Assembly (NCBI GenBank): GCA_963808235.1
Contig: CAWEEQ010000004.1
Span: forward strand, 1,792,001-1,856,000
DNA length: 64,000 nt
Direction of reading: 5' to 3'
Source of the DNA: an uncultured delta proteobacterium
GTDB lineage: Bacteria; Desulfobacterota; Binatia; Binatales; Binataceae
Below, in pieces: positions 10,570-15,627 of this stretch (position 1 is its first letter; each line of letters starts with the position of its first letter). A model generated the notes under the pieces. It ran no database searches, had not been told where the DNA came from, and saw nothing but the letters and a program-made list of their open reading frames with translations. Both the position numbers and the translations under genes were made by a program.

Positions 10570-11694
10570 ATGTTCGGACTCAAGTTCCTCGCAATCATGC
10601 GCCGCGACCTGAAGAAGCTGATGCGCAATCCGATCACGCTGGTCTCGGTCATCCTGATGCCGATCGTTTACCTGGTCATCATCGGCAATTCATTTCAGGG
10701 CCAGCTGAAGCATCTGCCGATTGTCGTAGTCGAGCAGGATCACGGCTTGTACGCGCGCCGAATCGTCGAACAGTTGCTCGCGCTGCAAGCCGGGCCGAAG
10801 ACGATTGACGTTACCTTCGAGAGCGATCCAGGCACCGCGATCGACGAAGTGCGCGACGGGCGCTTCAAAGGCGCAGTCGTAATCCCGTCCGACTTCAGCC
10901 ACGACGTGGCCGAAGGCCTGATCGGACAAATCGGACTGTTCACTGACAACGTCGACTCGATAAGTTCAGTCACTCTCGAGGGCGCGCTCGATACCGCCGC
11001 GGCTACCGTGCGGGTCAGCTTCGTCACCGCGCGCGAACCCAAGCTGAACGACATCTCGCTCCGCCCGAGCTGGCTGTTCCCCTACGTCGACTACGATCGC
11101 TCGCTTATTCCCGGAGTCATCGTGATGGCGATCTTCATGGGCTCGCTGATGTCGGGAGTGTTCAACTGGGTGATGGATAAATTTCTCGGCGTCACGGAAT
11201 GCTACCTGGTGACGCCGCTCTCGCGATGGGACATCGCGGGCGGCGTGCTCGCGAGCGGAGTCAGCGTGACGAGTGTGGCCGGTGTGATGGTTTTGTTCCT
11301 CGGCTTGTTGATCACGCGCGGGCGAATCGAGGGCGGACTGGTCGCGCTGCTCACTCTCGTCGGGATAATCGTCGTGAGCGCGACCGGGCTGCTCGCGATG
11401 ACGTTTGCGATCCTCGGCCGCGCGGGCCATCCGCGCCTGGTCGGCACGTTCTCGGGATTCCTGAATGTGATCTTGTTTTTTCCGAGCGGCGCGATCTATC
11501 CAGTCGAAAGCTTCCCGCCCTGGCTGCGCGCCTTCGCCCGCTTCAACCCCGAAACCCACTCGGTGAGCGCAATAAAACAGATCCTCTTCAAAGGCGCAGA
11601 CTTCCCCGCAGTCAGCGGCGACATCCTGTTCCTGCTAATTTTCATGGTCCTGATGCTGGTGCTGGCAAGCGTCTCCTTCAAACGGACTCTGTAG
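10570..11694 (+). CDS. ABC-2 type permease
   Basis: Multiple TMs, FFPSGAIYPVESFPPWL motif, follows the ATPase. Confidence 0.92.
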   Translation: MFGLKFLAIMRRDLKKLMRNPITLVSVILMPIVYLVIIGNSFQGQLKHLPIVVVEQDHGLYARRIVEQLLALQAGPKTIDVTFESDPGTAIDEVRDGRFKGAVVIPSDFSHDVAEGLIGQIGLFTDNVDSISSVTLEGALDTAAATVRVSFVTAREPKLNDISLRPSWLFPYVDYDRSLIPGVIVMAIFMGSLMSGVFNWVMDKFLGVTECYLVTPLSRWDIAGGVLASGVSVTSVAGVMVLFLGLLITRGRIEGGLVALLTLVGIIVVSATGLLAMTFAILGRAGHPRLVGTFSGFLNVILFFPSGAIYPVESFPPWLRAFARFNPETHSVSAIKQILFKGADFPAVSGDILFLLIFMVLMLVLASVSFKRTL

Positions 11695-11746
11695 GAGAAG
11701 GACGGTTCCGCACTCCGGCGAAACTTGCGTCGCGACCGCACGTGGC

Positions 11747-11792
11747 AAAAGATCCGGGTCCCTCGGCTCCGACAGCCTTCGCTCGCGATGAC
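11747..11792 (-). repeat. REP-like palindromic repeat, copy A
   Basis: Reverse complement GTCATCGCGAGCGAAGGCTGTCGGAGCCGAGGGACCCGGATCTTTT, homologous to copies B-E. Confidence 0.85.
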
Positions 11793-11926
11793 ACAAAGAG
11801 TGCTGACGAAAAGTCTGCTGACACAAGGTCTGCTCACGCAAAAAACTTGCTGACCCAAAGCCTGCTGACCCAAAGATTGGTGACACAAAGGTTGCTGACA
11901 CAAAAGGCCGCTGGCACGACGGCCCC
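11789..11926 (+). repeat. Degenerate 15-17 bp tandem array, about 8-9 units, consensus TGACACAAAGnyTGC
   Basis: Units start at 11789, 11804, 11819, 11834, 11851, 11866, 11881, 11896 and possibly 11912. Confidence 0.85.
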
Positions 11927-11933
11927 TAAAATC

Positions 11934-11975
11934 CGTCATCCCGAACGCAGCCGAGGGACCCCGGATCTTTTTCGA
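11934..11975 (+). repeat. REP-like repeat, copy B (a partial copy C lies at 12019-12038)
   Basis: CGTCATCCCGAACGCAGCCGAGGGACCCCGGATCTTTTTCGA; partial copy ACCCCGGACCTTTTTCCGAC. Confidence 0.85.
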
Positions 11976-12040
11976 CGCCGACTGGCATCACGCCTTGCAA
12001 TTCTTTCACGCGCTGCGAACCCCGGACCTTTTTCCGACTT

Positions 12041-12350
12041 CTACCCGCACCACCGGGTGCTCAGGTCATTCCAGGAGGGGTTCACAGACTCGATCAGGCG
12101 GATTTTCTTTTCGCGTCTCCAACTCTTCAGTTGTTTTTCACGCGAAATGGCGGCAGCAGGAGTCCCGAACTCCTCGAAGTACACAAGACGATAGACGTTG
12201 TACGTACCGGTGAATCCCGGAAGTTCCTTCCTTTTGTGCTCGTGAACTCGCCGAATTAAGTCGTTCGTCAGTCCTATGTATAGGGTGCGAGAAAGGCTCG
12301 CGACGACGTACACGAAAAAAGAAGGCTCGCCGTTGCGCTCTTGCCAGTGG
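12041..12350 (-). CDS. Stand-alone GIY-YIG nuclease (start codon uncertain)
   Basis: FFVYVVAS...TLYIGLTNDLIRRVHEHK...GFT..YNVYRLVYFEEF...AISREKQLKSWRREKKIRLIE..NPSW.DL. The frame stays open upstream to 12538 through the repeat array; no ATG lies near the domain start. Confidence 0.85.
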
Positions 12351-12371
12351 CGTTTTTGTCCGCGTCGCTGA

Positions 12372-12413
12372 ATCCGGGGTCCCTCGGCTGCGGCAGCCTT
12401 CGCTCGGGATGAC
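12372..12413 (-). repeat. REP-like repeat, copy D
   Basis: Reverse complement GTCATCCCGAGCGAAGGCTGCCGCAGCCGAGGGACCCCGGAT. Confidence 0.85.
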
Positions 12414-12533
12414 ACAAAGATCGCTAATGCAAGGATTGGTGACACAAAGACCGCTGGAAACAAAGCCTGGTCACGCAAAAAAACTTGTCGACACGGAGAC
12501 TGCTGACATAAAGGCTGCTGACGGAGAGATGTG
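12410..12533 (+). repeat. Second degenerate 15-18 bp tandem array, about 7-8 units
   Basis: Units start at 12410, 12425, 12440, 12455, 12471, 12489, 12504 and possibly 12519; same consensus as the left array. Confidence 0.8.
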
Positions 12534-12559
12534 AGCATTAGCTGGTACGAGTCGAAATC

Positions 12560-12598
12560 GGAAAAAGATCCGGGGTCTCTCAGCTGCGCTCGGATGAC
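12560..12598 (-). repeat. REP-like repeat, copy E
   Basis: Reverse complement GTCATCCGAGCGCAGCTGAGAGACCCCGGATCTTTTTCC. Confidence 0.8.
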
Positions 12599-12613
12599 AG
12601 AAAGTTAGCAGAT

Positions 12614-13006
12614 TCAGCCGGGGCGGGTGGCGAGGTAGTAGCGCTTGAGGGCGTCGCCGATTACGCGGGTTAGTTCGGCTATCGAGACTGGTTTCAGGAG
12701 ACACAGGTTTGCGCCGGCGGCGCGGGCGGCTTCGTTCATGCCTTGCGTGTTGTGACCGGACATCACGATGATCGGCAGCAGCGCGGATTTTGCGCGGGCG
12801 TGGCGGACGATCTCGATCCCGTTTGAATCGGGCAGACTCAAATCGGTGAGTACGAGGTCGGGAGTTTCGGAGTCGATAAGCTCGATCGCCTCGTGCGCAC
12901 CGAATGCACCGACGCATCGATGGCCCGCGCGCTCGAGCAGGCGGACGTAGGCGTCGACCAGGTCGCGCTCGTCATCCACGATTAGAATTTTCGCTTGCTC
13001 AGCCAT
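12614..13006 (-). CDS. Single-domain response regulator
   Basis: ILIVDDE, DLSLPDSNG, MSG, LKPV. Confidence 0.92.
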   Translation of the reverse strand: MAEQAKILIVDDERDLVDAYVRLLERAGHRCVGAFGAHEAIELIDSETPDLVLTDLSLPDSNGIEIVRHARAKSALLPIIVMSGHNTQGMNEAARAAGANLCLLKPVSIAELTRVIGDALKRYYLATRPG

Positions 13007-15419: not shown

Positions 15420-15627
15420 TCGCCGGTCAGGCAGGCGTGCTACGATGTCCGTCGGAAATAGTACGAGATCGAAGAACAAAAGTGGCCATGAACAACGGTA
15501 GCGCAATCCGACCGCCATGACAGGCGCGATCAGCTGTCCCGCGATGGGACACAGATACGTGTCGAGGGACACCGGAAGAAGATCCGGATCCCTCGACTAC
15601 GCTGAGACTGGGATTTCAGCGCCCTGG

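Follow-up and report, generated by a model that had tools for sequence, protein, structure and literature searches.

The 64,000-nucleotide stretch of DNA analyzed here (the window), from an uncultured delta proteobacterium that the names of homologs assign to Candidatus Binataceae, contains a small cassette in which two inward-facing tagged repeats enclose a single GIY-YIG nuclease gene; the system is a variant of the published Ssn nuclease/repeat system (PMC11893778, Chenal et al. 2025). The anatomy of the cassette, the homology of its nuclease, the co-variation of nuclease and repeat and the recent arrival of the cassette at its present site are established. We consider it probable, at roughly 0.6, that the whole is a selfish Ssn-type element, arranged as repeat, nuclease and opposed repeat, which nicks DNA and leaves the repair to its host.

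According to the main text of PMC11893778, Ssn proteins are single-domain GIY-YIG proteins flanked by CGTC-tagged hairpins; members bind these hairpins, and their cutting is restricted to the single strand that carries the tag, a few bases upstream (for SsnA, 4 nt ahead of the tag). The same text reports that a GTC before the stem and a C after it determine cutting and binding by SsnA, that 71% of Ssn homologs have an SRM nearby, and that SsnA reduces transformation of Neisseria meningitidis by repeat-bearing DNA in vivo. Its Discussion likens NTS-ssnA-NTS to IS200/RAYT-REP elements, and the spread by Ssn of its repeats and of itself appears there as a hypothesis only. The pairing of nuclease and repeat is thus already known, and the assertion in the first-pass annotation of this locus that CGTC-type REPs lack an established enzyme has been overtaken, although it still held at the time of Di Nocera et al. 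(2013; PMC3733652), who defined the CGTC REPs and, in the available text of that paper, found no transposase or partner enzyme. Beyond PMC11893778 we found no report on Ssn GIY-YIG/REP pairing in a literature collection that covers few subscription journals.

A nuclease gene between inward-facing repeats

The cassette lies in a 0.9-kb gap between two convergent host genes, which encode an ABC-2 permease (10570..11694, + strand, from a sequence scan) and a response-regulator receiver (12614..13006, − strand). Five YGTCAT-tagged repeat copies, A to E, occupy this gap, and re-reading of the coordinates bore out the first-pass annotation on the place and strand of every copy. Repeat B (11934..11975, +) is downstream of the Ssn-type nuclease gene (12041..12340, −) and repeat D (12372..12414, −) upstream of it; with D on the gene strand and B on the opposite strand, both tails point toward the gene and both tags outward, the inverted arrangement that had been proposed. 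Repeat A (11747..11793, −) is a long-loop variant and a sister to D, repeat C (12019..12038, +) is a tail-only remnant immediately past the nuclease stop codon, and repeat E (12560..12599, −) is degenerate. Tags are found at 11793 (−), 11934 (+), 12414 (−) and 12599 (−), and C has none. Absent from the first-pass annotation were two arrays of 15–17 bp units, one 5′ of A (eight diverged units, 11794..11915, −) and one 5′ of D (about seven diverged tag units, 12415..12530, −), and, beside E, a remnant of a second ssn gene end. This remnant (12523..12559, +) corresponds, in diverged form, to the spacer and the last ~9 codons of an ssn gene, lies on the opposite strand and reads DVSISWYE, and E relates to it as C relates to the present nuclease gene; a diverged gene end on the other strand indicates that the locus itself has been reshuffled. 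Further partial tag or tail matches occur in the window at 15592, 32072 and 35182.

The gap and its surroundings were also searched for known RNA and mobile-element families. Rfam gave no match at E ≤ 1 within 11500–12800. No transposase or integrase family was detected among 20 ORFs scanned in 0.8–24 kb (picked out of 37 listed ORFs of at least 150 aa), in line with the first-pass annotation, and the five integrase matches in the genome all fall outside the window. Y1_Tnp, the RAYT/IS200 domain, has no match across the whole genome (93% complete) and is present in 6 of 14 control genomes. A phage collection yielded no more than four weak matches to the nuclease, at 37%.

The gene between B and D encodes a GIY-YIG domain (PF01541, E 3e-12) as its sole Pfam domain, and no NCBIfam family matched the protein. 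It is identical at 42 of 85 residues (49%; E 4e-24) to an NTS-flanked homolog from Neisseria gonorrhoeae, which stood as a proxy for N. meningitidis SsnA in the similarity test; measured through this proxy, the similarity falls within the Ssn-family bounds of E<1e-10 and 75% cover in BLASTP to SsnA. The gonococcal gene is situated amid 11 NTS-type repeats, in the same inward arrangement as seen here. In its record (L031:1177-1467, a 2.17-Mb sequence filed as a plasmid) the stretch read has no in-frame ATG, and the gene may be a pseudogene in that record. Residues Y7, Y17, R27, E64 and N83 are invariant across 50 aligned homologs picked from 120 listed, and the invariant Y7, Y17 and E64 correspond to the tested catalytic residues Y6, Y17 and E64 of SsnA. 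With a single domain and a length of ~95 aa the protein lies below the family limit of 150 aa, and its homologs are mostly of 87–120 aa. The alignment-based model has one domain (pLDDT 92.7), the closest solved folds being UPF0213 (1zg2) and Slx1; it was taken in place of a single-sequence fold with a pLDDT of 54, which was discarded. Judged from its sequence, the window protein agrees with the Ssn family in size, domain content, similarity and catalytic residues: like SsnA (CDD cd10448), it is a single-domain GIY-YIG protein of ~95 aa with the same catalytic residues, and the YGTCA-tagged repeats that flank its gene are likewise oriented and have a C behind the stem.

The gene of ~95 codons in the first-pass annotation stands as an open GIY-YIG frame, without the ATG expected at its beginning. 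In this the window copy differs from its relatives: an ATG is found nine codons before V-Y in all 13 other members of the clade, and the window gene has GAG at this position (12340–12338). The frame is open and retains the key residues. The nearest available starts are a GTG at 12313, which would drop the first residues of strand 1, and an ATG at 12538, which gives a protein of 165 aa read through D and its array. This longer reading occurs in one record alone and crosses repeat DNA; an identical 165-aa protein on a 2188-bp contig (P0002) of another assembly has the same letters and perhaps derives from the same material. Window-identical pieces from four DNA sequencing runs cover 11973–12279 and 12357–12548, and none of the pieces listed from these runs spans the start-codon region or the locus. 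By its sequence, the window copy would encode a shortened, GTG-initiated protein or represent a decaying gene, and it may be inactive. At a distance of 54 kb the genome has an intact paralog (G000:C4:1749700-1749969), whose repeats are of the same subtype.

The repeat family and its pairing with the nuclease

On the tag strand the repeat comprises a T-rich flank, YGTCA, an arm of 4–5 bp, GA, a GC-closed loop, GA, the second arm, a C and a tail. The genome-wide count that the first-pass annotation had called for was made with one regular expression, which finds at least 85 copies in 4.59 Mb and none in each of five dinucleotide shuffles; 85 is a lower bound, as the expression catches only D among the five window copies. 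Thirty-three of the 85 are of the window's subtype, and 16 lie less than 1 kb from four full-length nuclease paralogs. As a dispersed, multi-copy family with an unpaired CGTC/TGTC tag, the repeats belong to the CGTC REP superfamily, with which they also share AT at the first stem positions, an intergenic location, occurrence in dimers and clusters and a place between convergent genes. They differ from the CGTC-1 to -4 families, defined in the available text of PMC3733652 by stems of 8–9 bp, loops of 4–5 nt and CCA tails; the window repeats lack these features and do not fit that definition. They likewise depart from NTS/SRM in their 4–5 bp stem, GA/GA mismatches, GCGNAGC-type loop, bulged C and longer tail. 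The published degenerate SRM pattern has no match in the window and, under two readings of the pattern, 31 and 26 matches genome-wide versus 23–42 in five shuffles. B and D pass a detector that requires a GTC immediately ahead of the stem and a C immediately behind it, and by inspection A has both as well.

As palindromes these elements are weak, and the term used in the first-pass annotation is somewhat too strong for them. Their Watson-Crick stems are of 4–5 bp, and folding of seven strands (the five copies and two complements) gave z scores of −1.56 to +1.81, none better than its own shuffles, under a nearest-neighbor model that contains neither sheared G·A pairs nor GNA mini-loops. Such pairs and mini-loops, which nearest-neighbor folding ignores, could stabilize repeats of this kind.

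Inward-facing repeats on both sides of the nuclease gene were detected at 25 of 44 loci in the genus and 39 of 74 loci across phyla, and in none of the control windows placed 900–1200 bp away (0/40 and 0/67, respectively); both repeats face outward at 2 genus and 11 cross-phylum loci. The detector, which requires a tag, a paired 4-base arm and a following C within 300 bp of the gene, misses some visible repeats. The genus set consists of the loci from homolog searches and two more cut from this genome, after removal of one weak relative and of three loci from other families; 4 of the 44 belong to this genome. Of 243 cross-phylum matches the best 80 were used, minus one duplicate genus locus and five loci with short flanks. 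In a nuclease tree of 46 rows (two short rows having been dropped), repeat subtype I forms one side of a 97/95 branch (13 rows) and subtype II one side of a 100/96 branch, with subtype labels that were set after inspection of the data and that kin share. Simple kinship is no explanation for single genomes that harbor different clades, each with its own subtype. Within this genome, both clade-I paralogs have subtype I at their flanks, and of the 10 subtype-II copies 7 are found less than 1 kb from a clade-II paralog; the presence of four paralogs with different repeat subtypes in one host is a departure from the published Ssn systems. Both the enrichment of repeats at homologs and their co-variation with the protein tree, which had been put forward as checks in the first-pass annotation, are borne out, and on this comparison of sequences the nuclease and the CGTC/TGTC repeats are a dedicated, co-varying pair.

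A second nuclease family in this genome shows a comparable arrangement. Both DUF559 endonuclease genes (L158, G000:C4:775072-775389; L159, 2519243-2519554) are bracketed by another palindromic repeat family, of types CCCCTTCCC..GGGAAGGGG and CCTCTCCC..GGGAGAGG, with 66 pattern matches genome-wide in a count made without a shuffle control; the flanking repeats are inverted at L159 and direct at L158. These genes and their repeats may form a nuclease-repeat pair that parallels Ssn on the basis of another fold, and among publications judged by their titles we found none on such a pairing.

Arrival and movement of the cassette

The permease is present in 43 relatives, and in the 29 that were retrieved the nuclease is never found within 1.5 kb of it. 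In 24 of the 29 the receiver gene is directly next to the permease gene, and the shortest gaps between them are 6, 18, 18, 33 and 39 bp, versus 922 bp here. Empty sites, which the first-pass annotation had suggested looking for in relatives, are found, and by this sequence comparison the cassette is a recent arrival at the permease/receiver site. The relatives are too diverged for an exact junction or target duplication to be read at the empty sites, and the listed pieces of the four DNA sequencing runs contain no credible empty-site joint. The gap in relatives also gathers other, unrelated repeat families and genes, and is a general insertion hotspot. One other class of repeat, tagged with TGTCATCCTGAC, occupies it in L035, L040, L043, L045, L048, L053 and L056; these repeats often occur as long, MITE-like inverted dimers whose interior is conserved, and the tag has 15 matches in this genome. 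A common small two-gene unit, which by eye resembles a VapBC-type toxin-antitoxin pair, lies downstream of the permease in L034, L036, L044, L047 and L049.

Fourteen clade-I loci are spread over 7 gene neighborhoods, as expected of the mobile cassette envisaged in the first-pass annotation. L144, L023 and L149 have the cassette (520 bp) at a shared site, and in L144 its orientation is opposite to that in the other two. The orientation switches at the repeats, the outcome that recombination by the host across inverted repeats would give. Clades II and IV are mostly confined to one neighborhood each, which fits vertical, domesticated genes. That stability, the presence of a homolog in 34 of 47 genus genomes and the role demonstrated in vivo for SsnA in N. 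meningitidis (main text of PMC11893778) would suit a domesticated modulator of restriction or recombination, which trims incoming or recombining single-stranded DNA at repeats and for which mobility is incidental. This reading sits poorly with the scatter of clade I, with the 13 of 47 genomes that have no match and the several copies that contain stops, and with a repeat density of just ~85 in 4.6 Mb, of which 16 lie less than 1 kb from one of the four paralogs; we regard it as unlikely for the cassette described here.

The cassette also resembles the REPtrons (RAYT/TnpA(REP), GTAG REPs, BIMEs) in its lone small nuclease gene between inverted tagged repeats, its dispersed repeat family, subtype-specific pairing and local amplification, and differs from them in its unrelated fold, its tag and the lack of a Y1_Tnp match in this genome. 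RAYT proteins act by HUH phosphotyrosine strand transfer, as opposed to the hydrolysis carried out by GIY-YIG enzymes. To our knowledge, GIY-YIG enzymes hydrolyze DNA and have no strand-transfer step. The suggestion in the first-pass annotation that this protein plays the part of a RAYT survives at best in a functional sense; it does not extend to strand transfer, and the window copy may be inactive. A transposase in the full sense, which cuts and rejoins strands and excises or inserts repeats or cassette unaided, would account for the IS-like layout, in which either outer edge has a cut site, for the many neighborhoods and for the lack of a Y1 transposase in the genome. The GIY-YIG fold with its hydrolytic active site and no HUH motif, the report of cleavage alone in the main text of PMC11893778, and the fact that no clean empty/filled junction or excision joint was seen make it very improbable.

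One-sided duplications and a nick-and-repair model

Each unit of the arrays behind A and D consists of the T-rich flank and a copy of the GTCA tag; the two arrays are 74% alike over 93 nt, and nothing else in the genome matches them. In a set of 350 distinct copies of the repeat, the 12-mer spanning the tag is near-exactly repeated 12–35 bp upstream in 16–22; the mirror test at the tail of the same copies finds 0–1, and random genome positions 1 in 3000. Counted per locus, 20 of 98 have partial duplications on the side of the tag, where the cut is expected, versus 1 of 98 on the tail side, and 15 of the tag-side loci are cross-phylum, in six phyla. A cruder first count of tags found extra copies just upstream in 12 of 83, versus 8 far upstream and 9 downstream. 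Longer duplicated units of 175, 189 and 210 bp likewise start in the 5′ flank, and two of these include pieces of a paralog. Ungapped extension puts the left breakpoints between about 0 and −16, and one read by eye is at about −27; they are scattered, and a search for a breakpoint fixed where SsnA cuts, 4 nt ahead of the tag, did not find one. Tandem Repeats Finder (TRF) placed 13 of 342 arrays near a repeat genome-wide, among the arrays listed. Empty sites, inversion and one-sided duplications set the present data apart from the main text of PMC11893778, which uses none of the terms "tandem", "inversion" and "pseudogene" and to which its figures and supplements could still add; no relevant report linking dRS3, tandem duplication and a nuclease was found.

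Two loci of this genome show the same kind of structure. At G000:C4:3121830-3121993, nine copies of an 18-bp tag-containing unit, 90% alike, stand directly 5′ of a full repeat, and this array is a younger example of those in the window. The intact clade-I paralog L020 (G000:C4:1749239-1750520) has three units of 210 bp upstream, each made of the repeat and the first 28 codons, and three of 175 bp downstream, each made of the repeat and the gene end, a fresh repeat-anchored amplification on both sides.

The conserved pyrimidine-rich flank may favor slippage, and arrays formed in this way would suit an account in which the repeats spread by slippage, recombination or another enzyme and the nuclease is a passenger. 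Such an account gains from the scattered breakpoints, from the hotspot that collects several unrelated repeat families in relatives, and from the missing ATG of the window copy. Plain stalling at a hairpin should also duplicate the tail side, where only 1 of 98 loci shows it, and against a passenger stand the inward bracketing across phyla with zero in controls, the matching of subtype and clade inside one genome and the sequence-specific cutting described in the main text of PMC11893778; we think it distinctly unlikely.

We favor the selfish nick-and-host-repair cassette. By analogy with published homologs, which are ~50% identical and act on a different repeat, the protein would bind the single-stranded tag strand and cut a few nucleotides 5′ of YGTC. 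With two inward repeats, the cassette would then have a cut site at either outer edge, one on each strand. From the 3′-OH of such a nick the host could synthesize into the hairpin, and slip-back or flap ligation, together with recombination between repeats, would yield both copying of the repeat and one-sided partial duplications; the same repair of nicks may occasionally move or flip the cassette. The enzyme would initiate the event and the host complete it, repair steps that we infer from the pattern of duplications. More tentatively, and with less than even confidence, Ssn nucleases in general could be the engine that has been missing for the multiplication of CGTC REPs and could move their own cassettes with no transposase, the nick 5′ of the tag priming host synthesis into the hairpin. 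The one-sided duplications in six phyla and the arrays of the window would be the footprint of this process, and the GA-mismatch class, outside SRM, would extend the family, each clade having its own specificity.

Taken together, the empty sites, the many neighborhoods, the inversion and the one-sided duplications lend genomic support to Ssn-driven spread, for which the duplications also offer a simple readout. Four paralogs with distinct repeat subtypes in one genome provide a panel for specificity swaps, and the GA-mismatch class, which escapes the published search pattern, may hold new specificities of ssDNA cutting.
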